NCBI GenBank assembly: GCA_903828055.1
Contig: CAIKKP010000057.1
Location: forward strand, 1 to 17,587
DNA from: an uncultured bacterium
GTDB lineage: Bacteria > Patescibacteriota > Andersenbacteria > UBA10190 > CAIZMI01
DNA: 17,587 bases
Direction: 5' to 3'
The notes under the pieces were generated by a model. That model was not told the origin of the DNA. It was given only the letters and a program-made list of their open reading frames with translations, and did no database searches. The position numbers were made by a program, and so were the translations under genes. The stretch's first letter is position 1. Each line of letters starts with the position of its first letter. Positions 1-15,226 of this stretch are shown piece by piece.

Positions 1-81
1 ATCGCCTATGCTAAAAGTGATACGGAATTTGTTCTCGAAGCAAATAAGGCGAAAAACGAGCTATTTTCAACCTTTCATTAA
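1..81 (+). CDS. 3' end of an upstream ORF that runs off the window start; product unknown
   Basis: Frame 1 reads IAYAKSDTEFVLEANKAKNELFSTFH and stops at TAA 79-81. There is no start codon in the window. Confidence 0.25.
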   Translation: MAYAKSDTEFVLEANKAKNELFSTFH

Positions 82-177
82 TAACTTAATAATCACCGCT
101 ACGCACGCTGTTTCATACCAATCTTCGGATTGGAAAAGACTTTCTGGAAACTCTTCTTTGGTCACATAAAGTAACTT

Positions 178-205
178 AAAAGAGCGCCAAAACGGCGCTC
201 TTTTT
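178..205. terminator. Rho-independent terminator hairpin, usable in both directions
   Basis: Stem agagcgcc (181-188) pairs with ggcgctct (194-201) around a 5-nt loop. It is flanked by AAA and TTTT, and lies 16 nt downstream of the minus-strand gene ending at 221. Confidence 0.55.
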
Positions 206-220
206 CAACTCAATGTTTAT

Positions 221-643: not shown

Positions 644-759
644 GTGTTTTGTCTTAATTATTAATCACCTTTGATGTGTTACCCCATTATATAGAAAAGT
701 GACGCATTGGAATACCGGTGCGAAAGTAACCGCCCACAGGTTAAGGCAAACAACGCATT

Positions 760-793
760 AAGGTCCGACTTTTGCAAAGGTCGGACCTTAATC
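760..793. promoter_or_regulatory. Perfect 12-bp inverted repeat with a 10-nt spacer in a divergent intergenic region
   Basis: ttaaggtccgac (760-771) is followed by 10 nt and then by gtcggaccttaa (782-793), its exact reverse complement. Confidence 0.4.
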
Positions 794-872
794 ACGAAAA
801 ACAGAACACAGCGGCAAAATTTGCTGATACAAACAAAATTCCTCAACCTGTGAGCGGTTACGTGCGAAAGAG

Positions 873-900
873 GTGACAGGATTAAAAAAAATGCTATAAT
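873..900 (+). promoter_or_regulatory. Sigma70-type promoter with an extended -10 box
   Basis: GTGACA (873-878), a 16-nt spacer, then TGcTATAAT (892-900). This sits 30 nt upstream of the ATG at 931, and the leader has no Shine-Dalgarno motif. Confidence 0.45.
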
Positions 901-930
901 AGTATTATTAAATCTAAATTAAATAAAACC

Positions 931-1257
931 ATGGACGCAGTACCACAAACACCCGTTACGCCAAATCCGGCTGACGACGTGCAAAAGAATAAAGCTCTAG
1001 CCGCTATTTCTTATATTTATATCGCCAGCTTGATCATCTTGTTGGTAAAAAAGGATAGTCCATTTGCGCAATTTCATGCAAAGCAGGGTTTCGTCTTGTT
1101 TATCGCCGCTTTGATTTGCGGATTTGTGCCGATTCTCGGTTGGTTATTGAGCATTGTTATTTTGGTTATGGCAATTATTGGAATCGTTTCGGCCGCGCAA
1201 GGCAAATGGTACAAAATGCCGTTGGTCTCCCAGTTGGCTGAAAAGATAAATTTCTAA
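931..1257 (+). CDS. DUF4870 (Tic20-like) family small membrane protein
   Basis: 108 aa with two predicted TM helices. Motifs AAISYIYIASLII...KKDSPFAQFHAKQGFVLFI and PILGWLLSIVILVMAII are characteristic of DUF4870 proteins. Confidence 0.7.
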   Translation: MDAVPQTPVTPNPADDVQKNKALAAISYIYIASLIILLVKKDSPFAQFHAKQGFVLFIAALICGFVPILGWLLSIVILVMAIIGIVSAAQGKWYKMPLVSQLAEKINF

Positions 1258-1275
1258 TTTAAAATGAAATTGTAA

Positions 1276-1360
1276 GGGAGCACGTTCTTGCTGTGTCGCT
1301 CCGTAGCTCAATAGAGCGAAGGGGGGTGCTCCCGTGCGGGCGGACTAGGACGTCCGCCCC
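1276..1360 (+). promoter_or_regulatory. GC-rich structured element of two tandem hairpins upstream of the pyk promoter
   Basis: gggagcac (1276-1283) pairs with gtgctccc about 42 nt later, enclosing an inner gctc-aata-gagc hairpin. A second hairpin follows at gggcggac...gtccgccc (about 1337-1360). The surrounding intergenic DNA is AT-rich. Confidence 0.3.
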
Positions 1361-1387
1361 TACGCGTTATAATTAAACTCAATCACC

Positions 1388-2815
1388 ATGTTAAAGCGCA
1401 CTAAAATCGTTTGCACAATCGGGCCCGCTTGTCAGTCGGAAGATAAATTATCGGCTATGATTAAGGCCGGGATGAACGTAGCGCGTCTTAATATGTCGCA
1501 CGGAACGTATGAGAATCATGCGCTCTTGATTCAGAATATTCGTAAAGCCTCGGAAAAGAATGGGGCGATTGTTGCATTACTGTTGGATTTGCAGGGTCCG
1601 AAAATTCGCGTCGGCAAATTGCCTGATGGTGGCGTAGAAATTAAGAAAGACGCGAAAATAATTCTCACCACCGGTACAGAAAAATATTCTGAAGGTGTAA
1701 TTCCGGTGCAGTTCAAGAATTTGCATAAAGATGTCAAAGAAGGTGATCGCATTTTATTGGATGATGGAAATTTGGAAGTGGCCGTTGAAAAGGTTGACGG
1801 CAGGGATATTTACTGTCGCATGATTATTGGTGGAAAGCTTATTTCGCATAAGGGAATTACTGTTCCAACTGCATCGTTGAGTACTTCCGCCTTGTCCAAA
1901 AAAGATAAGGAAGATTTGGTGTTTGGATTGAAACAGGGTGTTGATTTTGTCGCAATTTCCTTTGTTCGTCGTCCTTCCGATATTCGCGAATTGCGCGGTT
2001 TAATCAAAAAAGGATTACCCGATGGAATGGCAACACCGCTGATTATTTCCAAGATTGAAAAACATGAGGCATTGGTAAATTTGGATGAAATTATCGCGGA
2101 AACCGATGGTATTATGGTTGCTCGGGGCGACCTGGCACTGGAAACCAAGGCTTCCGAAGTTCCAATTTGGCAAAAGAGAATGATTCAAAAATGTTTGGAG
2201 GTTGCCAAACCGGTGATTACCGCGACGCAAATGTTAGATTCAATGACCAATGCGCCACGTCCCACACGTGCGGAAATTTCTGACGTGGCTAACGCGGTAA
2301 TAGATCACACGGACGCGACGATGCTTTCTCAGGAATCGGCGATGGGAAAATATCCGATAGAAACAGTAACAACAATGGCTGAGATCGCGCATTCTACCGA
2401 GGCTTCACCATTGGATGACATGGTTACTCTTCCTCCGCTTGATGGTACAGCTCCACCGGTATTGGCAATGAGCGCCGCCGCTTGTAGAGTGGCAAAAGAA
2501 GTCGGTGCCAAGGCCATATTTGTCATGAGTCGTACAGGGTTCACTGCTCGTTGTGTTTCTCGTCACCGTCCGCTTTTGCCTATCATTGTCGCAACCTCTG
2601 AGGCTTCTACGCGCAATCAGTTGGCGTTGAGTTGGGGGGTCGATCCATATTCTATCGAAAAATTCAGCGAGGCCAGGGAAGCCTGGGCGATTTTAGCTCC
2701 GGAATTGAAGAAAAAATATAAATTCAAAAAGGGTGATAAAATTATTGCTGTTTCCGGTTTAACGTCCAACCGCCATGGTGACTGGGACGAGTCGGTGCGT
2801 GTGTTTGAGGTGTAG
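1388..2815 (+). CDS. pyk: Pyruvate kinase
   Basis: 475 aa. N-terminal RTKIVCTIGPA, NVARLNMSHG, active-site MVARGDLA and the C-terminal regulatory-domain architecture are all present. TATAAT lies at 1368-1373. Confidence 0.95.
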   Translation: MLKRTKIVCTIGPACQSEDKLSAMIKAGMNVARLNMSHGTYENHALLIQNIRKASEKNGAIVALLLDLQGPKIRVGKLPDGGVEIKKDAKIILTTGTEKYSEGVIPVQFKNLHKDVKEGDRILLDDGNLEVAVEKVDGRDIYCRMIIGGKLISHKGITVPTASLSTSALSKKDKEDLVFGLKQGVDFVAISFVRRPSDIRELRGLIKKGLPDGMATPLIISKIEKHEALVNLDEIIAETDGIMVARGDLALETKASEVPIWQKRMIQKCLEVAKPVITATQMLDSMTNAPRPTRAEISDVANAVIDHTDATMLSQESAMGKYPIETVTTMAEIAHSTEASPLDDMVTLPPLDGTAPPVLAMSAAACRVAKEVGAKAIFVMSRTGFTARCVSRHRPLLPIIVATSEASTRNQLALSWGVDPYSIEKFSEAREAWAILAPELKKKYKFKKGDKIIAVSGLTSNRHGDWDESVRVFEV

Positions 2816-2886
2816 AAAAATAAATTATTTTATAAAATTTTCAGCAGGCCACCTAATCGTACTTTGTATTATTCATGGTGATTTTT

Positions 2887-2895
2887 TGCTATAAT
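2887..2895 (+). promoter_or_regulatory. Extended -10 box TGcTATAAT
   Basis: Same TGCTATAATA motif as at 892-901. It lies 26 nt upstream of the ATG at 2921, and the -35 is weak. Confidence 0.4.
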
Positions 2896-2920
2896 ATACT
2901 GGTCAATAATTAATATTTAT

Positions 2921-3856
2921 ATGCAAACAAAAACAAAGATCATATCGGTTATTGCGGTGGTTGTTGCGGTGGCGATAGTTTTGGCGTTCGCTATTAATCG
3001 GCCCATGGACAAAGAAATATATTCCTCATCAGATTATGATGTTACTGAGGAAAACATGATTGGTGGTCGGGCATTGCCACAATCATTAGTCGGAGTTGCT
3101 TCAGTGGAGAAAATTCAATCTTTTGCTGACAATTCGGGCGACAAGGCCTCATCTCAACAAAAACTGCAGTCCACTGAAAGATTAATTGTTCGTACCGGGC
3201 GACTGTCGGTTGTTTCTAATGATGTGCGAAAATCGGTCGGTGATATGTCGTCTTACGTTGTTGGTATCGGCGGTTTTGTGGTCAGTTCAAATGTGCAAGG
3301 AACGAATGATAATCCTTCTGCCACTTTGGAAGTTAGGGTTCCTGTCGACAAGTTTCAGGAATCGGTTGATAAGGCAAAAACTGCCGGCTTGCGCGTTACC
3401 AGCGAATCATTGACCGGCGAAGATGTGACGGAAGATTTTGTGGACACACAAGCGAGAATAAAAAATCTGCAGGCCAGTGAAATGCAGTTTTCTGAAATCA
3501 TGAAAAAAGCACAGAAAATCTCGGATGTATTGGAAGTACAACAACAACTTGAGCGAGTAAGAGGAGATATCGATGTCGCTCAAGGTCATGCGCAGTACTT
3601 AGAAAAATCTGCCAAGATGTCATCAATCACGATCTATTTTGCGACCGATGAAGCACAACTGCCGGTGGTGGATCCGGTAAATAATTGGAACCCGCTTACC
3701 ATTATCAAGAACGCATTCCGCTCTTTGGTTGGGTTGGCGCAGGGGTTGGGAACACTGGTAATCTGGTTGGTAATCTATCTCCCGCTTTGGGTATTAATCG
3801 CGGTAGTGGTTTACATCATAAAAAAAATAGTACGGCGTAATCAACAGCTAAAATAG
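2921..3856 (+). CDS. DUF4349 domain protein, a membrane-anchored envelope protein
   Basis: 311 aa with an N-terminal TM and two C-terminal TM helices. The central region carries LEVRVPVDKFQESVDKAKTAGLRVTSESLTGEDVTEDFVDTQARIKNLQASE...VLEVQQQLERVRGDID, which matches the conserved DUF4349 core including DVTEEYVD and RNL. Confidence 0.75.
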   Translation: MQTKTKIISVIAVVVAVAIVLAFAINRPMDKEIYSSSDYDVTEENMIGGRALPQSLVGVASVEKIQSFADNSGDKASSQQKLQSTERLIVRTGRLSVVSNDVRKSVGDMSSYVVGIGGFVVSSNVQGTNDNPSATLEVRVPVDKFQESVDKAKTAGLRVTSESLTGEDVTEDFVDTQARIKNLQASEMQFSEIMKKAQKISDVLEVQQQLERVRGDIDVAQGHAQYLEKSAKMSSITIYFATDEAQLPVVDPVNNWNPLTIIKNAFRSLVGLAQGLGTLVIWLVIYLPLWVLIAVVVYIIKKIVRRNQQLK

Positions 3857-3865
3857 CTATTGCCG

Positions 3866-3901
3866 AAAAAATGCCTCACCCGAAGAGTGAGGCATTTTTT
3901 A
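3866..3901. terminator. Bidirectional rho-independent terminator
   Basis: AAAAA, then stem atgcctcac (3871-3879), a 7-nt loop, stem gtgaggcat (3887-3895), then TTTTTT. It sits between the DUF4349 gene and the stop of the minus-strand recombinase ORF. Confidence 0.8.
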
Positions 3902-3913
3902 ATGGCAGGTTAG

Positions 3914-5554
3914 TTATTGCGGATCTGGTTCACAAGCGGTATGCTTTTGACGCGATAAATAAGCCAAGGAGAGGTGGCCGAGTGGTCGAAGGCGCGGCTC
4001 TCGAAAAGCCGTAGGGGCGCAAGCTTCTCGTGGGTTCGAATCCCACCCTCTCCGCCAGTTTGTACTTTTCGTAAAATCGTAGTCGGTTGCCTTCGCGCGT
4101 TGCGCTTCGGCGTGATATTTCGACGCGATTCGCCACGCGGGTTGGGGGGAAAACGACAACGACCGCTCGGCGATGCGGAAGTTCGAACCAATCTTTTTGA
4201 GAAAATCCCGTCCCGCGACGGGATTTTCTTGTTGAGCGATATTTTCGGCTTGGTTAGCCTCTTTTATGAAGTTTATCATCAGTTCGAACCGATTTTTGCT
4301 CTTTGTTCCAAAAGCGGAGATTTTCTCTTCTAAATCTTTTTTAGCAAGCATAAGTTTTTGTTTTTTCGCAACATATTCCATTTGTGATAAATTTCCGTCC
4401 AGTTGTAAATCAAGCAAACGATCAAGTTTTGTTTCTAGATCCACGAGTTCATCTCTCGTCTTTTGGACATGAAAGCTTTCCGCTTGGACGCCCTCCATTT
4501 TCTCTTTTTCAAATTCCGCAATACTCGCTTTTGCCCAACCGTCTGACAAAGAAACTTTTTTGATCACCTCCTTTATTTGAGAAGTGATGGCGTCCTCTCT
4601 CGCATACCTTTGTGTGCAAGGATTTTTCCGTTTCGTACATCGCAAATAGTTATGTCCTTTTTGCGTTTCAGTGGTAATGAAGCAACCGCACTCCCCGCAA
4701 CGGAAAAATCCTCTGTACACATAAGGTTTGAGTTTTGGCGTTTTCGGTTTTGATTTATTCATCATCACTTCTTGAACGGAATCAAAAAGCTTCTTTGTGA
4801 TAATCGGTTCATGCTTTCCGTCATACAGTTCATCGTTATATTCAATCATTCCGTAATAGATTTTGTTCTTAAGCATATATTGATAATTTGAGACGGAAAG
4901 CATTTTACCTTTCTTGCCAACCAAGCCTAGGGAATTGATCATCTTTCGCACTTGAGCAAGAGGATATTCACCAGTGGCGTACATTTCAAACGCCCGCTTG
5001 ATATACTTTGCCTTTTCTTTGTCCACGGCGATACAGCGAGCATTTTTATCGTTCACATAGCCCAATGGCGCCCAAGCGGGCCAGATGCCATTGCGTAACT
5101 TCTGGCGAATACCTCTCTTGATATTTTCCGACAGATTATCCACATAGTACTTTGATTGCCCAAAAGCGATTGATAACATAAATTTTCCCTGTGGTGTCGG
5201 ATCAAACCAAAAAGTAGGAAATTTTAGCGTGGTTATTTTCCCAGTATCTACCAGATAGATTATCCGTCCGCCGTCTATGGAATTGCGAGCTAAGCGGTCA
5301 GGGTGCCACGCTAAAATTCCTTCTGCTTCATTTTTCTCTATGCAAGAGATCATTTCGTTGAAAATATCTCTGCCCGGCTCTTTGGCGGTTTTACTTTCCA
5401 CAAACTCACGGACGATATTCAATCCTTCTTTTTTCGCAAATTCCCGCAATTCAAACATTTGCGCTTCAATACTCAAAACCTGCCTTTCAGGTTCGTCCGT
5501 GGATTTGCGGGCATAGAGAAAAATCTTTTTGGTTTGTAAATTTATGTTGTCCAT
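3914..5554 (-). CDS. Large serine recombinase with resolvase/invertase catalytic domain, recombinase domain and zinc ribbon
   Basis: The N-terminus YARKST...S has the catalytic Ser context of serine recombinases, followed by an RLARN motif. A CxxC...C...C zinc ribbon lies around residues 286-313 (FRCGECGCFITTETQKGHNYLRCTKRKNPC), and a coiled-coil region follows. Residues 1-456 are unique sequence. Residues 457-546 are encoded by repeat X and the antisense strand of the tRNA, so this is a probable read-through tail. Confidence 0.85.
   Translation of the reverse strand: MDNINLQTKKIFLYARKSTDEPERQVLSIEAQMFELREFAKKEGLNIVREFVESKTAKEPGRDIFNEMISCIEKNEAEGILAWHPDRLARNSIDGGRIIYLVDTGKITTLKFPTFWFDPTPQGKFMLSIAFGQSKYYVDNLSENIKRGIRQKLRNGIWPAWAPLGYVNDKNARCIAVDKEKAKYIKRAFEMYATGEYPLAQVRKMINSLGLVGKKGKMLSVSNYQYMLKNKIYYGMIEYNDELYDGKHEPIITKKLFDSVQEVMMNKSKPKTPKLKPYVYRGFFRCGECGCFITTETQKGHNYLRCTKRKNPCTQRYAREDAITSQIKEVIKKVSLSDGWAKASIAEFEKEKMEGVQAESFHVQKTRDELVDLETKLDRLLDLQLDGNLSQMEYVAKKQKLMLAKKDLEEKISAFGTKSKNRFELMINFIKEANQAENIAQQENPVAGRDFLKKIGSNFRIAERSLSFSPQPAWRIASKYHAEAQRAKATDYDFTKSTNWRRGWDSNPREACAPTAFREPRLRPLGHLSLAYLSRQKHTACEPDPQ
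3968..4057 (+). tRNA. tRNA-Ser with anticodon CGA; class II with a long variable arm and encoded CCA
   Basis: Acceptor GGAGAGG pairs with CCTCTCC. The D arm is GCCGAGTGGTCGAAGGCG. The anticodon stem cggct/agccg carries loop CTCGAAA, giving anticodon CGA. A 19-nt variable arm is followed by T arm GTGGG-TTCGAAT-CCCAC, discriminator G and CCA. It closely resembles canonical bacterial tRNA-Ser. Confidence 0.9.
4052..4185 (+). repeat. Inverted repeat X, copy 1 (134 bp, about 58 % GC)
   Basis: Exact reverse complement of 5618-5751, checked base by base (134 of 134). It begins with CCGCCA, the last 6 nt of the tRNA-Ser. Confidence 0.95.
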
Positions 5555-5585
5555 TCTTTATTTTTGGTTAGCTAAAAGATTGGTT

Positions 5586-5602
5586 GTATCGCCGTGCGAT
5601 AC
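5586..5602. promoter_or_regulatory. 7-bp perfect palindrome in the recombinase upstream leader
   Basis: gtatcgc-cgt-gcgatac lies between the recombinase start codon (5554) and repeat X' (5618). It is a candidate operator. Confidence 0.3.
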
Positions 5603-5617
5603 CCACGCATTGCGCGG

Positions 5618-5751
5618 CGAACTTCCGCATCGCCGAGCGGTCGTTGTCGTTTTCCCCCCAACCCGCGTGGCGAATCGCGTCGAAATATCACGCCGAAGCG
5701 CAACGCGCGAAGGCAACCGACTACGATTTTACGAAAAGTACAAACTGGCGG
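5618..5751 (-). repeat. Inverted repeat X, copy 2
   Basis: Reverse complement of 4052-4185 at 100 % identity. Confidence 0.95.
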
Positions 5752-5900
5752 GCGTTTTTGGACGAAGTTCGAACGTCGTTCGACGCAAACGCGTGACGCC
5801 CCCCCAGCAACGAAACGCGACGACGCCGATTCGTAACGCGAAAAAGGCATGGGAATAAATGAGTACTGTGTATTCTATAACGCAATCTTTATTTTTGCGA
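5748..5900 (+). repeat. Inverted repeat Y, copy 1 (153 bp)
   Basis: Reverse-complement match to 7675-7830 at about 94 % identity. The differences are C7 versus C9 in a homopolymer, a 12-nt divergent patch and one further substitution. It overlaps X' by 4 nt (GCGG). Confidence 0.9.
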
Positions 5901-5916
5901 CACGCCCTCTAAAAAT

Positions 5917-7638
5917 TCAAATAAAATTATTTAATTTTTTAGAAACAAAAAATGGTCCTATTGCTAAATACTTTATGTTTTTTGAATCAATAAAAGCTTC
6001 AATTGCTTGCCCTGGGTCATTAACGATCGGCAAGCCTTTAATATTGAACGATGTATTAATAATCAGAGGAATATTAGTTATATTTTCATATTCTTTTATG
6101 AGATCATAGTAAATACCATTATCATCGTTGTTTACTGTCTGAACTCGTACACTCCCATCAACATGTTGTGCTGCAGGTACTTTGTTACTGTATTCAGACT
6201 GTATTGCATCAACCAACAACATGTATGGCGATTTGGTTCCGCGTACCAGCCAATCTTTTGTTTTTTCTTCAAGAATAGAAATTGCAAAAGGACGAAATGA
6301 TTCCCTGTGTTTAGTTATGTTTAATTTTTCAATCATACTTTTATCAACGGCCGATGCAAGAATACTGCGCGCACCAAGAGCTCGGGGACCAAATTCTAAT
6401 CGTCCCTGAAACCACATAACGATTTCGCCCTCACTCAAAAGTCTGGCAACTTTTGTGTGAATTAAATTTTCCTTTGAATATGAAAATAAGTTTCCATGTT
6501 TCTTTAATTCATTTTCAATTTCCTTATTTGAGTACTCGGGGCCTAAATATGCATGACTAAACCGAACAGGTTTCTTTTCCTTGTTGAATTCTTGATGCAG
6601 TAAGTATTCCGCACCAATTGCTACACCTGCGTCATGCGATGCGGGCTGGATAAAAACCTCCTTGAATGGGGTTTTTTCTAAAATAAATCCATTTGTTACG
6701 GAATTCAAACAGACGCCACCAGCCATCACGAGTTTGCTTTTTTTTGTCTTATTATAAATATCATTTAGTTTTTCCAAAACTATCTCTTGTGTGTACTCTT
6801 GCCAAGTTGCCGCGACATCGAAATGGGCTTGCTTATATTGGCCTGATATGGCTGAAGGTTCGCCAATTAATTTTTCAAATTTCTCTGTTGGTTCTCCTTT
6901 GCAATCAGCTATTTTAAAATAAGAGGTATCTACATTTAGCCAGTCATTATCTTTTTCTGGAAAGAATTTCACAATATTTTTAAATTCACTCAAATATTTT
7001 GGCTTTCCAAGTGCAGCGAATGCCATCGTCGTGCCAGCCTTTTGCCAACCAGGCTCGAAACCGCAATATTCGCCTACTGCTCCCCAAACACATCCAATAG
7101 AATTGGGGTGATACAAAAATCCTTTTTGTTGTATTCCTTTTTTGTAATCAATTTGTCCCCACAAACTTGAATCATATTCTCCCCGCGCATCTATAGTTAA
7201 AAATGCGGCATCATCAAACCCCGAAGCATAAAATGCCGATGCGACATGTGCTTGGTGATGAATGTAAAATTTTATTTTTACGTTTGAAGAAAGTTTTCCG
7301 ATTCTCTTTTCAAAAAGATTAGCAATTGTTCTTAGTTGCCATAACTTTTTTAAGCTCTTTTTAAAAACGTAAAATGGCGGATGATATTGGAACAAGTATT
7401 CTTTAATAATTCGATTAAAAAATAGTTCTTTGGTGTCCCAACCTACGGCAACGCCTTTTAAATCTTTACTTGTAATGCCAGCCTTTTTGAAACAATATTT
7501 AATGGCATTTTCTGGAAAACCGGAATAATGTTTTTTTTGAGTAAATCGTTCTTCTTCAACTGCAACAATAATATTTCCCTCATCATCGATGAGGCAAGCA
7601 CTACTATCGTGTGAATAAGCATTTAGGCCAAGATACAT
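5917..7638 (-). CDS. Carbamoyltransferase of the NodU/CmcH family
   Basis: 573 aa. The N-terminus MYLGLNAYSHDSSACLIDDEGNIIVAVEEERFTQKKHYSGFP is the hallmark of NodU/CmcH/TobZ-type carbamoyltransferases, and the length is typical for the family. Confidence 0.9.
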   Translation of the reverse strand: MYLGLNAYSHDSSACLIDDEGNIIVAVEEERFTQKKHYSGFPENAIKYCFKKAGITSKDLKGVAVGWDTKELFFNRIIKEYLFQYHPPFYVFKKSLKKLWQLRTIANLFEKRIGKLSSNVKIKFYIHHQAHVASAFYASGFDDAAFLTIDARGEYDSSLWGQIDYKKGIQQKGFLYHPNSIGCVWGAVGEYCGFEPGWQKAGTTMAFAALGKPKYLSEFKNIVKFFPEKDNDWLNVDTSYFKIADCKGEPTEKFEKLIGEPSAISGQYKQAHFDVAATWQEYTQEIVLEKLNDIYNKTKKSKLVMAGGVCLNSVTNGFILEKTPFKEVFIQPASHDAGVAIGAEYLLHQEFNKEKKPVRFSHAYLGPEYSNKEIENELKKHGNLFSYSKENLIHTKVARLLSEGEIVMWFQGRLEFGPRALGARSILASAVDKSMIEKLNITKHRESFRPFAISILEEKTKDWLVRGTKSPYMLLVDAIQSEYSNKVPAAQHVDGSVRVQTVNNDDNGIYYDLIKEYENITNIPLIINTSFNIKGLPIVNDPGQAIEAFIDSKNIKYLAIGPFFVSKKLNNFI

Positions 7639-7674
7639 GGATATTGCATTAATGATCTGATCTTATAATAGTTC

Positions 7675-7830
7675 TTCGCAAAAATAAAGATTGCGTTATA
7701 GAATACACAGTACTCATTTATTCCCATGCCTTTTTCGCGCTACGAATCGGCGTCGTCGCGTTTCGTTGCTGGGGGGGGGCGTCACGCGTTGTCAGCGAAA
7801 CACGTTCGAACTTCGTCCAAAAACGCCCGC
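7675..7830 (-). repeat. Inverted repeat Y, copy 2 (155 bp)
   Basis: Reverse complement of 5748-5900. It ends with CCGC at the outer junction. Confidence 0.9.
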
Positions 7831-7839
7831 AAAATAATG

Positions 7840-7867
7840 AAACGCCCTTGTGGCGTTTTGTTATTTT
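7840..7867. terminator. Terminator-like hairpin
   Basis: aaacgcc (7840-7846) pairs with ggcgttt (7852-7858) around loop cttgt, followed by tgttatttt. It lies at the outer edge of repeat Y'. Confidence 0.35.
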
Positions 7868-7977
7868 GCCTGAGCAACCAACTGCTTGGTTGCGAGTGGG
7901 ATTCGAACGGTTCGCGTTGTCCAGCAGGACCGCGAACCGGTGGCCAGAAATTTGCAAATCATTGCAAGTTTCGAGGC

Positions 7978-7992
7978 CGAATCCCACCCTCT
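7978..7992 (+). repeat. Partial duplicate of the tRNA-Ser 3' segment, a candidate attR core
   Basis: 15 of 15 identity to 4037-4051, with mismatches on both flanks. An inverted partner, gtgggattcgaa, lies at 7897-7908. Confidence 0.4.
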
Positions 7993-8087
7993 TTGCAGTA
8001 AGAATTCTTTTCCTTATCGTTGACAGTATCGAATTAGCGTGTAAAGTTTATCAACATTGGTAATTTATAAATAATTGCAATATTGAT

Positions 8088-8531
8088 ATGGGTGAATACA
8101 AAAATGCCTCTGACGTAAAAACAAACGCCATTGGAAAAAACAAAAAAGTGCTCTTCATTGAAGAAGTTGAAGACGATAACTCCCTCCGCAGAGTGCTTAG
8201 TGATAAATTGACCCATGAGGGGTTTGGCGTTTATGAAGCAAAAGATGGCGAAGAGGGATTAGCGGTTGCTTTAAGTGAGCACCCCGATTTGATTTTGCTT
8301 GATATTAAAATGCCCAAAATGGACGGTCTAACGATGATGAAAAAATTGCGTCAGACCGATGAATGGGGAAAGCATGTTCCGATTATTATGTTGACGAACC
8401 TTAGCGCGAACGATAATCATATCAACCAAGTGATTACGGAGAATGAGCCGGCCTATTATATCGTGAAATCAGACTACACACTTGACGAGTTGGTAAAGAA
8501 AATAAGAGAACGACTTTCTAAGGTGCTTTGA
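8088..8531 (+). CDS. Single-domain response regulator (CheY-like receiver)
   Basis: 147 aa. Acidic pocket EEVEDD, phospho-acceptor context LILLDIKMPKMDG, conserved T in IIMLTNLS and a K near the C-terminus. There is no output domain, and no histidine kinase in the window. Confidence 0.8.
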   Translation: MGEYKNASDVKTNAIGKNKKVLFIEEVEDDNSLRRVLSDKLTHEGFGVYEAKDGEEGLAVALSEHPDLILLDIKMPKMDGLTMMKKLRQTDEWGKHVPIIMLTNLSANDNHINQVITENEPAYYIVKSDYTLDELVKKIRERLSKVL

Positions 8532-8948
8532 ATATAAGCACTGTCAGGGTTACAAAATCTTTTAGGGTATACGCAATAATGGGTTGGAGTCTCGTCCTTG
8601 CGAGGCTTTTCAAGGCCGAAGCAATCTCCCGTTAAAAATTACTACTTCATAGCACTCATTCTTGAGATTGCCACGCTGTTCGACAACCCTGAGCTTCCCT
8701 CTCGATCCTGAGCTCGAGGTCGAAGAGCAGTCGAAGGGCCTTGTCCTCCGCCAGCCGGCGGAATCACGCATGATCAATGGCTCGCAAAGACGCGAATTGT
8801 TTCAATTTTGTTTCTGATATGGCTTATGTTTATCTATTAATCCAGATGATTTACGTATGATCTTCATGGGTTGTTTCTTTAAATAAGTCGCATATCGTTT
8901 AGAATATTGAAGCTTACCTACGCTTACGGTTTGTGCTATTATTTACTT

Positions 8949-10187
8949 ATGCCTACAGAAAAGAATTCCGGAGCAATAGACGCGGAAGTGATAAAAGAGC
9001 CATCTTTGAAGGAGATTCTTGACGATAAGGAACTTGGGCGTGGTTTTAAGACGTGGTTAGAAGGACAAAAAAGGGAGGATTTAATGGTTCGTATGTTGTC
9101 TGGGAAATTGGAAAGTGATGATCTGAAGACGTTGGCGTCAGAAACGGATAAGTTTTTAGAGCGAACGAGTCAAAGTGGCGAAATAAAGAAACAAATTTCA
9201 GAAACCGATGAAATTAGTACACTGGTTGAGGCATCAAACTCGGATGACTTAAAAGATTTGGTTAAACTTTTTGGTGTGGATGGTATTAAGGAGGCTTTTG
9301 GGGATGTGTTGGATAAAATCGCTTTGATGCCCGGTGATGAGCTTGCGAATGTTTACAAAGTTTTTAATGAGCGACGTGAAGCGGGGAAGTTGGTGGAACA
9401 ACAAAAAGCCGAATTTAACAGTATGTTGGAAAAGTTGAATTTGTCACAAGAAGAGGCAAAAGAAGTCGCAGGTATTCCGATATGGGAAGTAAGACAAAAA
9501 AAGGTGGCTGAGTTGTGGCGTAGTAAGGGGTTAGAAAAAACCGAGGAAAAAAGTATTTGGTTTATAAAATGGAATAAAAAGGTGTGGCCGCCGGAACAAG
9601 AGGAATTTATGAAAATGGATGCTGAGGATTTTTCCAAGGCGCTTAAAATTAATGAGTGGACAATAACTGAAAAACAAATTGAGAAGGCGGAAAAAGCGTT
9701 AAAGGAACGGCAGAAGTCTTTAGTGGAATCACTGAACGCTACCGCCTCTATCGATGGTATTGCAGAACTCAATCGTCATTTGATAGGGGAAAAGGAAAAA
9801 CCGGACAAAACAATGAGTTTCAAAGAAGTGAAACAGGAACTGAAAAAAGAAAAGGACAAGGAAAACATTTCTCGTGAATTTTTTGAGTATGCGGAACGCG
9901 GGTTCGCTGATTATATTGAAGAGGCTGGCTACCCGATGGGTACGAAAGATTTGCAGATGGCTGCCGCAAGTGATTTTTATCGAAAGTTTCAGGACAATCG
10001 CAAATTACAACAGAACAAACGTGGCGGATTATGGTCGTCTATCTATCAAACTGTTCTTGAGCCGTTAGTTCAAGAATTATTGACCGAACTACAGACAGAT
10101 GATCGCTTTAATGTGACAACAAGAGTTGAGAAGAAACGCGGCGTAGCTGACAAAAATTGGTATAATTTATCAAAGAAAACAAAATGA
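8949..10187 (+). CDS. Hypothetical K/E-rich soluble protein, first gene of a four-gene operon
   Basis: The ORF is open from TTG 8907. An ATG at 8949 lies directly downstream of TGcTATTAT (8934-8942), so a leaderless start is plausible. The protein is charged, largely helical, and has no recognisable domain or TM. Its stop overlaps the next start in ATGA. Confidence 0.5.
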   Translation: MPTEKNSGAIDAEVIKEPSLKEILDDKELGRGFKTWLEGQKREDLMVRMLSGKLESDDLKTLASETDKFLERTSQSGEIKKQISETDEISTLVEASNSDDLKDLVKLFGVDGIKEAFGDVLDKIALMPGDELANVYKVFNERREAGKLVEQQKAEFNSMLEKLNLSQEEAKEVAGIPIWEVRQKKVAELWRSKGLEKTEEKSIWFIKWNKKVWPPEQEEFMKMDAEDFSKALKINEWTITEKQIEKAEKALKERQKSLVESLNATASIDGIAELNRHLIGEKEKPDKTMSFKEVKQELKKEKDKENISREFFEYAERGFADYIEEAGYPMGTKDLQMAAASDFYRKFQDNRKLQQNKRGGLWSSIYQTVLEPLVQELLTELQTDDRFNVTTRVEKKRGVADKNWYNLSKKTK

Positions 10188-10474
10188 CCGAACTCGCCAT
10201 TCAACTTGAAAAGCTAATTGAAGTCGGTGATGAAAAAGCCGTGCGCGCTTTTGTTATTGAACACATTAAAGAGTTTCCGGAAGAAACAAGAAATCAAATC
10301 ATCTTTGCTTTTTTTACCGAAGCGATGGAAAACGACACCAAGGCCAAGCAAGCGCTCGCGGGAATAATTGGTCAAGGGTTGGATGAATTGAAACAAATTA
10401 ATAAAGACCTAGCCAATCTTGGCGATAAGAAAGCGATTTTGGACGTACAAAAGAAGATTCAGGGGATAAAGTAG
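10184..10474 (+). CDS. Hypothetical 96-aa protein
   Basis: The ATG overlaps the upstream TGA in ATGA. Coding-like composition, no recognisable domain. Confidence 0.5.
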   Translation: MTELAIQLEKLIEVGDEKAVRAFVIEHIKEFPEETRNQIIFAFFTEAMENDTKAKQALAGIIGQGLDELKQINKDLANLGDKKAILDVQKKIQGIK

Positions 10475-10687
10475 GACGCGCACTACGTCAGACATAACCC
10501 CTCTTGCGCTGGCACCCTCTCGAACATCCACCGGATGTTCTCGGGGCATCCGCCGCGCCACTTTGATAAGGGGAGATAACTTGGTGTCGTATTTCTTCCA
10601 TTTTTCAGGGGAAGGCGGGGATGAGTTTGGTTGTTGCTTTTGATATGTTTGTTTATTCGTTAGAAAAGCGTCATAATTGACGTAGCT

Positions 10688-11152
10688 ATGCCAACTGAAA
10701 CAAGAAAAGAAAACCCCGAAGGCAGTTTAGTTTTTGAAAATTCGGAAAAAGCGAAGCAGTTTGCCGAGCGCGTGAAAGAAAACTTAGAACAAAAGAATGA
10801 GTCTGAACCTGGCATGGAAAGGCGTAACGAACTTACTGAAAAACGCATTAAAGACGCAATTCGTGAAGAATTGGAGAACGAAACAAACGGTGCCGGTTTG
10901 GCTACTGTTGCGGAAGGCAAGGGTGAATGGCAGTATTCCGCCGAGGATCGCGCGGGTGTACAACAATATGTAAACGTGGCTTTCGCTACCTCCGTTCAAA
11001 AAGCGGTGGAAGAAATGATGCGAGAAAAAATTGTCGCGGGCAGTAAAGCCGACGAAGCGTCCACTTATCGTAAACTTGATTTATTTCATGACACGCTCAC
11101 CGATCATCTCTACCAAGATATGACGGCCAGAAAAATGATTCCACCGGGATGA
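10688..11152 (+). CDS. Hypothetical 154-aa acidic protein
   Basis: Preceded by TTGTTT, a 17-nt spacer and CATAAT (about 10648-10676). Its stop overlaps the next ATG in ATGA. No TM and no recognisable domain. Confidence 0.5.
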   Translation: MPTETRKENPEGSLVFENSEKAKQFAERVKENLEQKNESEPGMERRNELTEKRIKDAIREELENETNGAGLATVAEGKGEWQYSAEDRAGVQQYVNVAFATSVQKAVEEMMREKIVAGSKADEASTYRKLDLFHDTLTDHLYQDMTARKMIPPG

Positions 11153-13617
11153 TTCAGTTACTTGTTCTTTTCTTGTTGTTGATTATTGTAGGGATTATCA
11201 CCTATTTGGTTTTGAAGTATTTGCAGGAAGAAAGATTACTCTCTTCTTTACATTTGATTTTGCTGGAAGTGACGGTGCCGAAAGACTTACCGCAACAAGA
11301 AAAAGACCGTGAGGGAACGGTGCAGGAACAAATTATGCGCGGTTCGCAGTTTTTAGCCAGTTTGGCGGGTTTGCGTGAAGAAAATTTCATTAAGAATCTG
11401 ATTTTTGGTAAACCGACATGGGGTTTCGAAATTGTCGCGCATCCGAATGGTGAGATTATTTTCTTTGTTTCGGTACCACGTCGTTATGAAGAATTTATGG
11501 AAAAACAAATTCTTGCTTTTTATCCGCGTGCCGATGTGAAGCGCGTGGCGGATTATACGATTTTTGAAGAAGGTGACACGGTTGAGGGGGGAGTTGTAAA
11601 ACAACATCATAAAAAATATTTACCGTTGAAGACTTTTGAGGATTTGCCGTCCGACCCGATGCAGGGGATTACACAGGCGTTATCTAAAATGGAAAAAGGC
11701 GACGGTGGCGCGGTGCAATTTATTGTGCGACCGGCATCCGCGCGGATTCGTGTGAAGGGACGGCGTGTTACGCGTCAGGTGGCGTTGGGAAAAGAAAAAT
11801 CGGTGCGACACGGGACTTCTTCTTTTGGCGAGGCGGCTCGCGGTTTGGGGCGCACAGCTAACAATTCCTTATTGAAAAATAAAGAGCAAAATACGCGACA
11901 AGACGATCGGGAAGATAAGTGGCAAGCACAAATGTCGCCTGCGGAACAAGAACGACTAGAACGCGTAGATAAAAAAACCGGTGAATATCAGTTTGAAGTG
12001 ACAATGCGCTTAATCGTTTCCTGCAAAACAAAAGAAACAGCCGAATCACATTTTATGGTACTCAAAGAATCACTGACGCAATTTGGCGACCCTTCTTTAA
12101 ACGAGTTGAGTACGCATCGTCAAACGAAACGTAGTTTTTTCCGTGATTATATATTCCGCACGTTTAAAAAATCGCAATGCATGGTGTTGTCGTTGACGGA
12201 GCTTTTGTCACTTTTCCATTTCCCGTTATCTACCACTGAAACACCCAATATTCGTTGGCGCACGTCAAGAAGTGTCGCGGCACCGGCCAATTTGCCCCAA
12301 AACGGTATTTTATTAGGTTACAACGATTACCGAGGGATTAAGACTCCTATTCGGCTTCAAAGAGAGGACAGGCGTCGTCATATGTATATGATCGGTCAAA
12401 CTGGAACCGGTAAAACAACGCTCTTCAAAAATATGATTATGCAGGATATTCGCAACGGAGAAGGAGTCGGGGTGGTTGATCCGCACGGACAATTGATTGA
12501 AGATATTCTTTTGCAGATTCCTAGAGAGCGGGCCGAAGATGTGATTATTTTTGATCCGCGCGATACCGATCGGCCGTTGGGGTTGAATATGTTGGAGGCG
12601 CGCAATCCGGCGCAACGCGATCTTGTTGTTTCCGAACTAATTATGATTATCGAAAAACTGGCCACACGGATGAATCCGGAATCGATCGGTCCGATGTTTG
12701 AACATTATTTGAGGAACGCGCTTTTGACACTGGTGGAAGACCCAGACTCAACAATGATCGATATCTCTCGTCTTTTTACCGACAAGGCCTTTCGTGATTG
12801 GCTGGTGGCAAAAGTGAAAAACCCGATAGTGCGGGAGTTTTGGGAGAAAGAGTATGCTCAATCTCTGAAGGGGCAACAGTCGGCCGATATGTTGTCGTAT
12901 GTTATCAGTAAGCTTGGGCGTTTTATTGGTAATGAGGTAATTCGCAATATCATCGGTCAGCCAAAAAGTTCGTTTGATCTGCGTGAAATAATGGATAATA
13001 AAAAAATCTTACTCGTTAATTTGTCGAAGGGTTCGTTGGGTGATATTAATGCCGATTTGCTTGGGTTTATCTTAGTCAGTAAGTTGCAAATTACGGCGCT
13101 TTCCAGAACGGATATTCCGGAAAATCAACGTAAGGATTTTTATCTTTATCTCGATGAGTTTCAAAATTTCACCACCGATACTGTCGGGACAATTTTAAGC
13201 GAGGCGCGTAAATATCGCTTGGACTTGAATTTGACGCATCAGTTTATCGCGCAACTTTCGGATGAAATCAGAGAAGCTGTTTTTGGTAACGTTGGTACGG
13301 TAATTTCTTATCGTGTCGGTGTGGAAGATTCGGAGCTGATGGCAAAACAACTCGCCCCTGTTTTTGACGAGTATGATTTGATTAATGTTCCAAATTATAA
13401 TTGTTTCACGCGCTTACTTGCCAAAAATCAACCGCAACGTCCATTTTCCATGAAAGCGTCACCGCCACCACCGGGGGGCGACGAAGAACTTCGTCAGAAT
13501 TTGTATGAATTGTCACGTCTTAAATATGGTCGACCAAAACAGGAAGTGGAAGAGAGAATATTGGAACGGCTGAAAGTAGCGACTGCTCCCAGCCTGTCCG
13601 GTATGGGTTCGCGCTAA
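11149..13617 (+). CDS. TrwB/TraD/VirD4-like type IV coupling protein family P-loop ATPase, membrane-anchored
   Basis: 822 aa with an N-terminal TM (LVLFLLLIIVGIITYLVL). Walker A MIGQTGTGKTTL is followed by VVDPHGQLIEDIL...IIFDPRDTDRPLGLNMLE, matching the TrwB pattern GATGTGKS...IVDPNGD...ILNP.D.R. Walker B is YLYLDEFQNF. The C-terminal LTHQFIAQL...GNVGTVISYRVG matches the Q..QL...GN motif of coupling proteins. Confidence 0.6.
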   Translation: MIQLLVLFLLLIIVGIITYLVLKYLQEERLLSSLHLILLEVTVPKDLPQQEKDREGTVQEQIMRGSQFLASLAGLREENFIKNLIFGKPTWGFEIVAHPNGEIIFFVSVPRRYEEFMEKQILAFYPRADVKRVADYTIFEEGDTVEGGVVKQHHKKYLPLKTFEDLPSDPMQGITQALSKMEKGDGGAVQFIVRPASARIRVKGRRVTRQVALGKEKSVRHGTSSFGEAARGLGRTANNSLLKNKEQNTRQDDREDKWQAQMSPAEQERLERVDKKTGEYQFEVTMRLIVSCKTKETAESHFMVLKESLTQFGDPSLNELSTHRQTKRSFFRDYIFRTFKKSQCMVLSLTELLSLFHFPLSTTETPNIRWRTSRSVAAPANLPQNGILLGYNDYRGIKTPIRLQREDRRRHMYMIGQTGTGKTTLFKNMIMQDIRNGEGVGVVDPHGQLIEDILLQIPRERAEDVIIFDPRDTDRPLGLNMLEARNPAQRDLVVSELIMIIEKLATRMNPESIGPMFEHYLRNALLTLVEDPDSTMIDISRLFTDKAFRDWLVAKVKNPIVREFWEKEYAQSLKGQQSADMLSYVISKLGRFIGNEVIRNIIGQPKSSFDLREIMDNKKILLVNLSKGSLGDINADLLGFILVSKLQITALSRTDIPENQRKDFYLYLDEFQNFTTDTVGTILSEARKYRLDLNLTHQFIAQLSDEIREAVFGNVGTVISYRVGVEDSELMAKQLAPVFDEYDLINVPNYNCFTRLLAKNQPQRPFSMKASPPPPGGDEELRQNLYELSRLKYGRPKQEVEERILERLKVATAPSLSGMGSR

Positions 13618-13670
13618 TTTCACGTGTCTGTCATTCCTGCATCAAGCAGGAATCAGCGACGAGTGTAACC

Positions 13671-15183: not shown

Positions 15184-15226
15184 AACTTGTTAGACAGGGG
15201 CTAAAAACCGATATACGCTCATCTTT

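Follow-up and report, generated by a model that had tools for sequence, protein, structure and literature searches.

Serine integrases move a range of prophages and other elements (phiC31, Bxb1, A118 with its LI integrase, SCCmec with Ccr, Tn4451 with TnpX), and these are the closest described relatives of the locus analysed here. In the canonical reaction an attP-type site recombines only with attB, and integrases with defined attP and attB sites are used as genome-engineering tools. The present locus has the same enzyme architecture and fold, the same few bases shared between the ends and the target without long direct repeats, and the same 5-bp offset of a half-site motif between the element side and the target side. 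It differs in that attP appears to lie inside the integrase ORF, where integration would swap the C-terminus, and in that the element carries the attP region and the 3' end of the gene a second time, intact and inverted (approximately 290–550 bp). It also differs in having no recognisable directionality factor, in its patescibacterial hosts and in its tRNA-Ser target.

Two further systems resemble the locus in part. Two unique segments separated by inverted repeats also occur in the yeast 2-micron plasmid (FLP/FRT), in plastid genomes with inverted repeats and in the class E genome of herpes simplex, where the internal junction is an inverted copy of the joined termini. Orientation isomers and concertedly evolving repeats are shared as well, but the likeness is one of topology, without homology: here the isomers were seen only between genomes, not within a population, and are strongly biased, no replication function is encoded, and the enzyme, as a serine integrase, would not be expected to recombine two identical sites. 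In the integration-dependent immunity of mycobacteriophages, which Broussard et al. are said to have described in 2013, attP reportedly lies inside the repressor gene. Placement of attP within a coding sequence and an integration-dependent change of the C-terminus would be common to both, whereas here the split gene is that of the integrase itself and the enzyme is of the serine rather than the tyrosine type.

Full-text literature searches found no published description of the architecture reported below. The nearest was a general survey (PMC2853133), which treats repeat-flanked transposon-like units and tRNA-integrated units with direct repeats separately, contains no combined architecture and does not cover Patescibacteria. 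The restriction-modification cargo found in relatives of our element, bracketed by long inverted repeats and with an integrase at a tRNA, corresponds to these units. Patescibacteria (CPR bacteria) are a large and mostly uncultured group with tiny genomes, in which few mobile elements have been characterised.

The window analysed here is a 17,587-nt stretch of an uncultured patescibacterial genome (GCA_903828055.1, contig CAIKKP010000057.1, positions 1 to 17,587). It contains two pairs of long inverted repeats, X and Y (outer and inner arms X and X', and Y' and Y, respectively), with the following features:

3914..5554, minus strand: large serine recombinase ORF as integrated, 546 aa (Pfam, structure comparison, tail analysis)
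3968..4057, plus strand: tRNA-Ser(CGA) (ARAGORN; Rfam tRNA, 59.5 bits)
4052..4185: outer arm of repeat X, read as the element side of attL; 134 nt, complementary to 5618-5751 at 100%
4056..7830: whole integrated element, 3,775 bp with one CCGC core copy counted (core positions, Y'-X join, layout in relatives)
4199..4230: strong hairpin adjoining X on its internal side, within the integrase ORF; both strands have T-runs (terminator scan; fold -21.4 kcal/mol)
5555..5617, minus strand: spacer between the integrase start codon and X'
5618..5751: inner arm of repeat X, X' (inverted-repeat search)
5748..5751: internal core GCGG, common to X' and Y, at the centre of the intact inverted attP-like unit
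5748..5900: inner arm of repeat Y (gapped alignment, translation)
5917..7638, minus strand: carbamoyltransferase of the NodU/CmcH type, the sole cargo gene (Pfam Carbam_trans_N and Carbam_trans_C; homologues)
7676..7830: outer arm of repeat Y, Y', read as the element side of attR (gapped alignment)
7837..7865: hairpin with T-runs directly outside the element (terminator scan; fold -16.8 kcal/mol)

The first-pass annotation had described Y as a long inverted repeat around the carbamoyltransferase gene, and this repeat is real. Positions 5748-5900 and 7676-7830 are reverse complements at 94% identity (94.2% over 155 columns by BLAST). The repeat search returned them as two pairs of arms, 5799-5900/7676-7777 (102 nt, 99%) and 5748-5805/7773-7830 (58 nt, 90%), which merged in a gapped alignment. 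The differences between the arms consist of a 12-nt patch, one A/G change and a run of 7 versus 9 C, and the arms are separated from the gene by 17 nt at its stop codon and by 37 nt at its start codon, all as described before. A chance origin is excluded, because the next-longest inverted repeat of the window besides X and Y measured only 30 nt at 77% identity. The same two repeat pairs are contained in a contig assembled independently from a different sample (L002; 9,964 nt, 99.97% identical), which excludes an assembly artefact. The arms are GC-rich and structured, as could also be said of a generic intergenic repeat of the REP or MITE kind. However, the inner part of Y had no other match in approximately 100 related or neighbouring loci (including about 20 kb of the 82.8-kb source contig), the repeats were always linked to the integrase, and independent assemblies agreed, so that a generic repeat or an artefact of assembly is given practically no weight. 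Rfam searches at both thresholds returned the tRNA as the sole match, with none for the adjoining inner arms X'Y or for the structured region 7866-7996, and a sigma-70 consensus scan did not find a convincing promoter inside X'Y.

The position of Y relative to X is central to the interpretation of the locus. Y begins within the final 4 nt of the right X arm, X' (5618-5751), with the core GCGG in common, and X and Y are therefore physically one unit. Together, X' and Y make up a single 283-nt unit, U (5618-5900), which is intact inside the element. The inverted copy of U is split, with X beside the tRNA-Ser gene and Y' beside the tRNA terminator, and both pieces end in the same 4-nt core, present as CCGC at 4052-4055 and at 7827-7830. 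Joining position 7830 to position 4056 (Y' to X) restores the reverse complement of the internal U. We read Y, with a probability of roughly 0.7, as half of a larger mirrored repeat that belongs to one mobile island at the end of a serine tRNA gene, and not as a feature of the carbamoyltransferase. In the simplest reading, the outer arms are attL and attR and the inner unit is a second, intact, inverted attP.

The boundaries of the element agree with insertion at the tRNA. The tRNA-Ser(CGA) gene ends exactly at X and its final bases, CCGCCA, overlap the start of X; the encoded CCA is therefore supplied by the element, and the 3' end of the tRNA gene would constitute the left half of attB. The distance of the motif GTTCGAA from the core is 15 nt towards the tRNA and 20 nt towards Y. 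For the LI integrase, a 5-bp outward shift of the motif bound by the zinc-ribbon domain is expected in attP relative to attB. The predicted sites, as reconstructed from the two ends, are:

attP: 7780-7830 joined to 4056-4100
attB: 4020-4055 joined to 7831-7870
empty site: CCCTCTCCGC|AAAATAATGAAACG

The hairpin directly outside the element (7837..7865) is read as the tRNA-Ser gene's own terminator, displaced by 3.8 kb through the insertion; analogous hairpins adjoin the outer Y arm in four relatives (L020, L033, L042 and L066). The hairpin just internal to X (4199..4230), which has matching stems in both L014 relatives, may replace the terminator of the tRNA. A clean empty site for this exact locus was not obtained: contigs with genes for the identical flanking DUF4349 and response regulator proteins either carry the element or break at the repeats, and a metagenome scan with DUF4349 yielded only two distant loci. 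Two loci with the same DUF4349-tRNA-Ser(cga) arrangement upstream were found. In one (L100) the tRNA is unoccupied and the DNA downstream of it differs, and in the other (L101) the tRNA is occupied by a different family member. In two close relatives (L102 and L104; DnaG 93% and 83% identical), synteny is lost at the element, just upstream of a 426-aa gene. A DDE-type transposon or insertion sequence was rejected, given that Pfam detected no DDE transposase between the repeats, that X and Y', which form the outer ends, do not constitute an inverted repeat, and that the sole flanking repeat is the 4-nt recombination core. A phage origin was likewise rejected, with one distant match (56%) in IMG/VR.

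The integrase displays the Pfam domains Resolvase (PF00239), Recombinase (PF07508) and Zn_ribbon_recom (PF13408). A search of solved structures with its sequence returned nothing at 1e-5, and the relation to known enzymes emerged by fold search. The AlphaFold2 model of a 97%-identical homologue (P0001; mean pLDDT 78.5), which has long helices at residues 338-385 and 391-415 after the zinc ribbon, in keeping with the coiled coil embedded in the zinc-ribbon domain of serine integrases, matched serine integrase-att complexes over its full length, including those of Bxb1, phiC31 and the LI integrase (Foldseek, E 1e-16 to 1e-12). The ORF runs through X and across the crossover core: the minus strand of the outer X arm encodes residues ~457-501, and from residue ~502 onwards the protein reads antisense through the tRNA. 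The native end of the protein, which with this tail would be 515 aa long, is encoded in Y, of which the first 14-20 codons correspond to a conserved C-terminal helix of the integrase. In the window, the first 45 nt of Y after the core (5752-5796) form a spare integrase tail, AFLDEVRTSFDANA followed by a stop codon, in frame with X', and the reverse strand of Y' encodes the tail AFLDEVRTCFADNA and a stop codon, with which the integrase ORF would end in a circular form. Internal copies translate as ...NWR-CFL(D/I)(E/D)VRTFF(E/D)(Q/E)NP-stop, distant members included, and the tail codons show an excess of third-position changes, with 1152/903/2656 pairwise differences at codon positions 1/2/3. 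The P0001 model predicts the tail with confidence as a helix (residues 498-513). Among 120 cluster representatives of the protein, at least 71 had the antisense-tRNA read-through and at least 18 the native tail.

The inner boundary of X falls within an invariant GGTTCGAAC in 69 out of 69 genes. The spacer between the integrase start codon and X' consists of two small hairpins and then AACCAATCTTTT, with continuing homology to the 3' region of the integrase. A site-specific event at this boundary (TTCG^AAC) was considered and rejected: the upstream copy merely has the two small hairpins inserted, after which the homology resumes.

The same organisation was found in many other genomes. A scan of approximately 186,000 species-representative genomes returned at least 557 relatives, of which 80 loci were kept. 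The layout tRNA, X, integrase, X'Y, cargo, Y' is repeated in dozens of patescibacterial genomes, and the family can be described as very common minimal islands of ~3-9 kb that target tRNA-Ser genes of any anticodon. A tRNA-Ser gene on the opposite strand lies at the 3' end of the integrase gene in 59 of the 80 loci, and a tRNA-Gln gene in 4. The X repeat reaches at least 120 nt in 46 loci, in 28 of those with at least 99% identity, and also occurs beside tRNA-Ser in Elusimicrobia, with a nearly constant length of ~134 nt from Patescibacteria to Elusimicrobia. The Y repeat is more variable in length (~150-420 nt) and brackets 1.3-7 kb of cargo. The DNA outside the outer Y arm differs from genome to genome and often holds a terminator hairpin; in 25 relatives, a shared core ranging from CGG through GCGG to TGGCGG is flanked by unrelated host DNA. 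In the family junction table the core region reads ...TTGGCGG, followed by TGTTTTTTGA..GTTCGAAC.

These data bear directly on the proposal of the first-pass annotation that X and Y delimit two cassettes with separate histories. Two independent cassettes side by side, each with its own terminal inverted repeats and moving as a circle with a palindromic joint, would account for a separate repeat pair around each unique segment and for the different identities of the two pairs (100% versus 94%). Symmetric joints are also conceivable, as the possible crossover dinucleotides in the shared CGG include the palindromic CG, and in one locus (L050) X-integrase-X' stands by itself between two identical tRNA-Ser(gga) genes in inverted orientation, with neither Y nor cargo. 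Against this, X and Y abut with an overlap of 3-19 nt and a common core in all 19 loci where both were mapped, and the conserved Y start follows the upstream X arm in 37 of the 40 junction-table loci with a readable flank, the exceptions being L055 and L050 (flipped or tRNA-flanked) and L073 (a distant member with a different flank). Moreover, the start of Y encodes the integrase C-terminus with a codon-position signal, a cargo-only unit was not seen, and the element has a tRNA at one end and host DNA at the other, as would a single insertion. Since Y' and X also make up an inverted U, and many Patescibacteria genomes have inherited the entire layout as a single element of two segments, the two-cassette proposal is quite unlikely and the idea of separate histories is not supported. 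The L050 arrangement is nevertheless outside what a single-element model predicts.

The lower identity of Y had been taken as a sign of that separate history. Family Y arms are typically 97-100% identical, and the 94% of this element is unusual. In comparisons between relatives, for instance, 24 (L034 versus L060) and 25 (L027 versus L043) differences were fixed in both arms and 0 were found between arms; the two copies of each arm thus evolve in concert. The element of the window appears to be reduced, lacking the HTH gene usual in the family, and the low identity of Y fits such a reduced element better than a separate origin. Homogenisation of Y is weak or lost in this element.

The carbamoyltransferase is co-directional with the integrase and, as had been proposed, is the cargo of a mobile element with a recombinase. 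It is also atypical cargo, as first thought: relatives carry variable cargo, mostly an HTH gene plus restriction-modification or defence genes. Its closest homologues (85%, 72% and 60% identity) occur in ordinary chromosomal contexts, with neither a recombinase nor repeats. The gene is probably of an ordinary chromosomal type and would have been captured from a chromosome into the cargo position of the reduced element.

Taken as one island, the locus suggests the following route of movement. The element would travel as a circle in which the Y'-X junction is the attP site and falls within the 3' end of the integrase gene. The enzyme would then recombine attP with the 3' end of tRNA-Ser (attB), thereby splitting this copy of U into attL and attR and replacing the last ~15 residues of the integrase with antisense-tRNA sequence. 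The internal U would represent a second intact attP together with a spare integrase 3' end and stop codon, in inverted orientation. In the circle, two inverted copies of U would separate the integrase segment from the cargo segment; recombination between them could change the relative orientation of the segments, and either copy could serve for integration. Under the canonical rule that attP pairs only with attB, the integrase should not invert these segments, and serine integrases are not known to pair attP with attL or attR either. We favour homologous recombination with gene conversion over the integrase as the source of the isomers and the identical arms. For this element, neither a circle junction nor an alternative orientation was found. 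Among 15 billion sequences, the integrase proteins predicted for the circular and the flipped form were both absent, and the integrated form was present on 8 contigs.

Orientation isomers raise the possibility of a programmed inversion switch, in which the integrase would flip the cargo, its own gene or both to switch expression. Invertons and shufflons (Hin, Gin, Rci and hsdS switches) likewise combine a recombinase gene with adjoining DNA bracketed by inverted repeats. Known examples have short repeats and use small invertases or tyrosine recombinases. Both orientations do occur among the relatives, with the cargo flipped in L054 and L066 and the integrase flipped in L055 and L062, and inversion of the integrase segment would give the protein its native C-terminus again, supplied by the internal copy. 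In many assemblies the contigs end at the repeats; such breaks, however, are expected at any repeat longer than the k-mer. In the window element a single orientation was seen on 8 contigs, every assembled contig spanning a junction agrees with it, and no inversion within a population was detected. The orientation is strongly biased in the family, with the integrase 3' end at the tRNA in ~95% and the cargo diverging from the integrase in 22 of the 24 cases where its operon direction was clear, which makes free flip-flop unlikely. The arms (134 and 153 nt in this element, 134-420 nt overall, versus 14-40 nt in invertons) bracket whole genes, including that of the recombinase, in contrast to short recombinase sites. 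In flipped relatives the X arms often differ from each other (83% identity in L055; a mosaic in L050), which suggests rare homologous events. An inversion switch is therefore regarded as rather unlikely.

The internal copy might instead be a historical accident, that is, the functionless scar of an old nested or head-to-head double insertion followed by a deletion, passed on by inheritance ever since. These tRNA genes commonly harbour tandem or decayed insertions, and the function of the internal copy is a prediction only. A scar, however, is at odds with the nearly constant length of X across the two phyla, the concerted evolution of the arms, the invariant inner X boundary and the operator-like palindromes that flank the internal copy (17-bp palindromes GCAAAATnnnATTTTGC and ATTTTGCnnnGCAAAAT), all of which argue for a maintained function, and we consider an accident very improbable.

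At the other extreme, the inverted duplicate could be a working part of a new transposition strategy. Integration and excision would swap the C-terminal helix as a self-encoded directionality switch, with no separate factor, and the internal copy would serve as a second live attP with a native 3' end in reserve, giving four isomers or a single-strand dumbbell. In the dumbbell form, a single DNA strand would be taken up in which X pairs with X' and Y pairs with Y', so that the stem is a double-stranded attP with a nick exactly at the core. No recombinase would then be needed to recircularise the element, and repair of heteroduplex in the stem would produce identical arms. This strategy is offered as a tentative idea that we think unlikely.

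For serine integrases, an attachment site within the integrase gene is unusual, as is a concertedly evolving inverted copy of it, and the architecture raises the question of what controls directionality and expression when a separate directionality factor is lacking. Islands of this family are probably a main route of defence-gene exchange in these organisms. The family further offers many integrase variants whose sites can be read from sequence.

Three smaller observations were made in the relatives. Terminator hairpins accompany the internal U. In L012, from the same sample series, the integrase body reads into a different X2-Y2-HTH region starting exactly at the X boundary, and this contig is either a chimeric assembly or a real recombinant. 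Finally, L016 displayed a chain of four repeat pairs, which is explained by tandem accretion at one tRNA.

The inverted repeat around the carbamoyltransferase gene, which the first-pass annotation had described as the frame of a separate cassette, is real. The two arms of this repeat, Y, showed 94.2% identity across 155 columns (BLAST), and a gapped alignment reproduced all the differences that had been listed between them, namely a 12-nt patch, one A/G change and a run of 7 versus 9 C. The gaps of 17 nt and 37 nt between the arms and the gene were also correct given the position of the ORF. Besides Y and the repeat X that brackets the integrase, the longest inverted repeat in the window had 30 nt and 77% identity in the repeat search. 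An independent contig of 9,964 nt from another sample was 99.97% identical and covered both repeat pairs. The features are as follows.

3968–4057, tRNA-Ser(CGA), its last bases containing the start of X
4052–4185, X outer arm, 134 nt, 100% complementary to 5618–5751 (inverted-repeat search)
5618–5751, X inner arm (X'), 134 nt (inverted-repeat search)
5748–5900, Y inner arm (gapped alignment joining two pieces from the repeat search)
5917–7638, minus strand, carbamoyltransferase ORF
7676–7830, Y outer arm (Y') (gapped alignment joining two pieces from the repeat search)
7837–7865, hairpin with T-runs, directly after Y'

The right X arm (ending at 5751) and the left Y arm (starting at 5748) share GCGG, and 5618–5900 therefore forms a single 283-nt unit, U. 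CCGC is both the end of Y' and the start of X, and the reverse complement of U exists in two pieces that are restored by joining position 7830 to position 4056. The simplest reading is that a 3,775-bp element (4056–7830) has integrated at the 3' end of tRNA-Ser; the element-side halves of attL and attR would then be X and Y', and U would be an intact second attachment region in inverted orientation. The hairpin after Y' looks like the terminator of tRNA-Ser(CGA) itself. The motif GTTCGAA is separated from the core by 15 nt in the tRNA and by 20 nt in Y; for LI integrase, attP is expected to have the zinc-ribbon-domain motif shifted 5 bp outward relative to attB. Among genomes that retained DUF4349 upstream together with tRNA-Ser(cga), L100 has the tRNA unoccupied, and in L101 another member of the family occupies it.

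We scanned species-representative genomes with the integrase and obtained at least 557 relatives, of which 80 loci were kept and compared with the integrase oriented forward. Patescibacteria accounted for nearly all of them and Elusimicrobia for the more distant ones. A tRNA-Ser of any anticodon abutted the integrase 3' end on the opposite strand in 59 of the 80 loci, and a tRNA-Gln did so in four distant loci. An X repeat of at least 120 nt was present in 46/80 loci and was at least 99% identical in 28 of these 46. Wherever upstream DNA sufficed, a Y repeat of ~150–420 nt abutted X, with an overlap of 3–19 nt (19/19 loci), and bracketed a cargo of 1.3–7 kb. Across the family the junctions are conserved: X terminates in ...TTGGCGG and runs on either into antisense tRNA (AGAGGGNGGGATTCGAACCC) or into a conserved start of Y (TGTTTTTTGA..GTTCGAAC.TTTTTTGA). 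Beyond the outer Y arm, each genome had a different sequence, which was often a terminator hairpin and had only CGG to TGGCGG in common with the core. Host-specific flanks with a short shared core are the pattern that would be expected of attR and host flanks.

The ORF between the X arms encodes a large serine recombinase with Resolvase, Recombinase and zinc-ribbon domains (Pfam), and the AlphaFold2 model of a 97%-identical homologue (P0001) matched serine integrase–att complexes over its full length (Foldseek). The ORF passes through X, and the family proteins share the ending ...KYHAEA..YDF.KS.NWR before the tail. After NWR, antisense-tRNA translation (RDSNPR...) was found in at least 71 of 120 cluster representatives, and a conserved tail, CFL(D/I)(E/D)VRTFF(E/D)(Q/E)NP plus stop, in at least 18 of 120. 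The internal U copies, distant members included, encode the same CFL... tail in frame after X. Variation in the 14 tail codons was mostly at third positions (pairwise differences of 1152, 903 and 2656 at codon positions 1, 2 and 3), and in the P0001 model the tail is a confident predicted helix (residues 498–513) after a small beta-hairpin and helices encoded by X. In the window, the internal copy (5752–5796) encodes AFLDEVRTSFDANA-stop and the outer arm would encode AFLDEVRTCFADNA-stop in a circle; the 12-nt Y patch therefore swaps three tail residues and keeps the frame and stop codon. We infer that the attachment site would be located inside the integrase gene, that integration would swap the last ~15 residues of the enzyme for antisense-tRNA sequence, and that a spare native 3' end would remain upstream, inverted, after integration. 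In the proposed mechanism, the element would circularise, making the Y'–X joint an attP within the integrase 3' end, and the circle would integrate at tRNA-Ser, with internal U as a second attP and spare gene end.

In one relative at tRNA-Ser(gct), L016:1723–11503, a chain of four abutting inverted-repeat pairs resolves into two complete two-segment elements in tandem, the newer between the tRNA and the older. By reading on into the newer element's outer Y arm, the older integrase recovers a tail of the native type. Two further relatives (L029 and L047), in which the integrase reads into Y-type sequence and not tRNA, may have the same tandem arrangement. In sample ERZ27313532, a contig (L005:2702–2796) departs from the integrase gene at window 5334 into unrelated AT-rich sequence, and contigs from other samples of the same population (L003, L006) stop at window 5229; in some strains the 5' third of this gene may carry an insertion or deletion.

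Elements with the same Y-arm type differed mutually at many positions that were identical in both arms of each. Relatives L034 and L060 had 24 differences fixed in both arms and 0 between arms; for L027 and L043, these numbers were 25 and 0. X arms were mostly 99–100% identical within an element, against a median of ~65% between elements in an ungapped comparison. Changes are being transferred from arm to arm by some process, for which gene conversion between inverted copies is the obvious candidate. Mismatched X arms resembled mosaics of two X alleles (L024, 75%; L055, 83%), and in L050 the allele switch point falls within X; homologous exchange therefore occurs inside the arms. In L050 (9669–11587), the integrase and X arms lie between two 100%-identical inverted tRNA-Ser(gga) genes with differing outer flanks, no Y and no cargo, and the mosaic X arms differ only within 35 nt of the core. 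This arrangement is not explained by the main model; it could have arisen by recombination of the internal attP with a second tRNA-Ser gene.

At the inner X boundary (4178–4190), the G-S-N codons GGT TCG AAC (GGTTCGAAC) were present in 69/69 integrase genes (window and L013–L094), with no synonymous variation across 57–97% protein identity. The motif matches the tRNA T-loop and the Y half-site motif, and the codon invariance suggests a DNA-level constraint, possibly as an additional site bound by the integrase. The upstream copy carries an insertion of two small hairpins precisely at TTCG^AAC, beyond which homology resumes. Related 17-bp palindromes (ATTTTGCnnnGCAAAAT, GCCAGTTnnnAACTGGC, GCAAAATnnnATTTTGC) flank the internal repeat copy in L016, L018, L020 and other relatives, at the inner Y-arm boundaries and in the spacer upstream of the integrase, and move together with inverted cargo. 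Because of the invariant codons, the hairpins and the boundary palindromes, we argue that the internal copy is maintained. The palindromes are likely operators for the element's 64–70-aa HTH protein, whose gene and 180 nt upstream are conserved backbone and not cargo in the relatives. The window's element is without the palindromes, the HTH gene and the upstream backbone.

Cargo diverged from the integrase in 22 of 24 relatives with clear operon direction, usually opening with the HTH gene adjoining the inner Y arm. Inversion of the entire cargo was seen in L054 and L066, where the HTH gene lies beside the outer arm, and the window's carbamoyltransferase is co-directional with the integrase, like these inverted cargoes. 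The integrase is directed away from the tRNA in L055 and L062. Segment-orientation isomers thus occur in nature and are rare. The window element was seen in one form only: 8 contigs carry the integrated-form integrase, and neither the circle-form nor the flipped-form protein predicted for it occurred in the sequence collection searched. Contig breaks at the repeats were not taken as evidence of inversion, since they are expected with any repeat longer than the assembler k-mer. One contig (L012, sample ERZ27313539) starts exactly at the outer edge of X; its integrase is identical over the first ~465 residues, beyond which the contig continues with another allele of X (74% identical), a junction of the Y type and an HTH gene. 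The contig is either a chimeric assembly of two elements sharing the integrase body or a real recombinant or alternative isomer.

The inverted copies would recombine, probably by homologous recombination with conversion, a segment occasionally flipping and the arms staying identical. The inversions were not attributed to the integrase, since pairing of attP with attL, attR or a second attP is not expected of canonical serine integrases. A directionality switch via the swapped integrase C-terminus, or a dumbbell fold of single-stranded DNA rebuilding attP, seems improbable. The enzyme and insertion logic are like those of serine-integrase elements. Unlike these, the family has its predicted attP inside the integrase ORF and a long, conserved, concertedly evolving inverted copy of the attachment region; together with the two-segment layout, which in topology resembles the 2-micron plasmid, plastid inverted repeats and herpes simplex genomes, these features set it apart. 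A full-text literature search returned no description of this architecture; the nearest match was a general survey (PMC2853133) covering restriction-modification genes that have flanking inverted repeats or are linked to integrases at tRNA genes.

Among 95 cargo ORFs scanned in 25 relatives, 20 were HTH_3 proteins, and the others were mainly DNA methylases, restriction endonucleases, ResIII/DEAD helicases and AbiEii-like ATPases, with occasional HisRS, Hsp70, GreA and transporters. The earlier view of the carbamoyltransferase as unusual cargo thus holds against a family mainly carrying HTH_3 and restriction-modification or defence types. Homologues of the protein at 85%, 72% and 60% identity all sit in ordinary chromosomal surroundings that lack both integrase and repeats, and nucleotide homology to the closest is limited to 5922–7691, the gene plus ~50 nt upstream; the gene appears to be a captured host-type gene. 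Apart from L064 (78%) and L024 (90%), the window's Y arms were the least similar of those measured. Together with the missing HTH module, this fits a reduced, possibly ageing copy.

The relatives of its DnaG place the host in the Patescibacteria as a Parcubacteria-like member. When window 8088–8906 was compared with two close relatives (L102 and L104, DnaG 93% and 83% identical), these had the window's gene order from the 426-aa gene (8907) onward, and at that position were without the response regulator, tRNA-Ser and everything upstream. Because the order is shared only from 8907 onward, the element is placed at a synteny breakpoint. Within the integrase ORF, just internal to X, 4199–4230 forms a perfect 14-bp hairpin (GAGAAAATCCCGTC/GACGGGATTTTCTT) with T-runs on both strands. 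Matching stems with a varying loop are present in both L014 relatives, and the residues encoded here, ENP...RDF, are found again in the inspected family proteins. This hairpin could terminate read-through from the tRNA, whose own terminator is now 3.8 kb off. The region 7866–7996 is very stably structured (about -67 kcal/mol on either strand) and comprises two inverted tRNA-3'-end-like fragments (GAGTGGGATTCGAAC and GAATCCCACCCTCT, the latter identical to the tRNA-Ser 3' end) and a terminator-like hairpin; it received no call from ARAGORN or Rfam. L066 has a comparable tRNA-like fragment ~50 nt beyond its outer Y arm. Either the region is a remnant of earlier insertions, perhaps, or it may be an unknown small RNA. 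On the source contig, an rve-family (DDE) transposase gene (L001:178–1344) lies just beyond the window, ~100 nt before its first position, and represents a second kind of mobile DNA in the vicinity.
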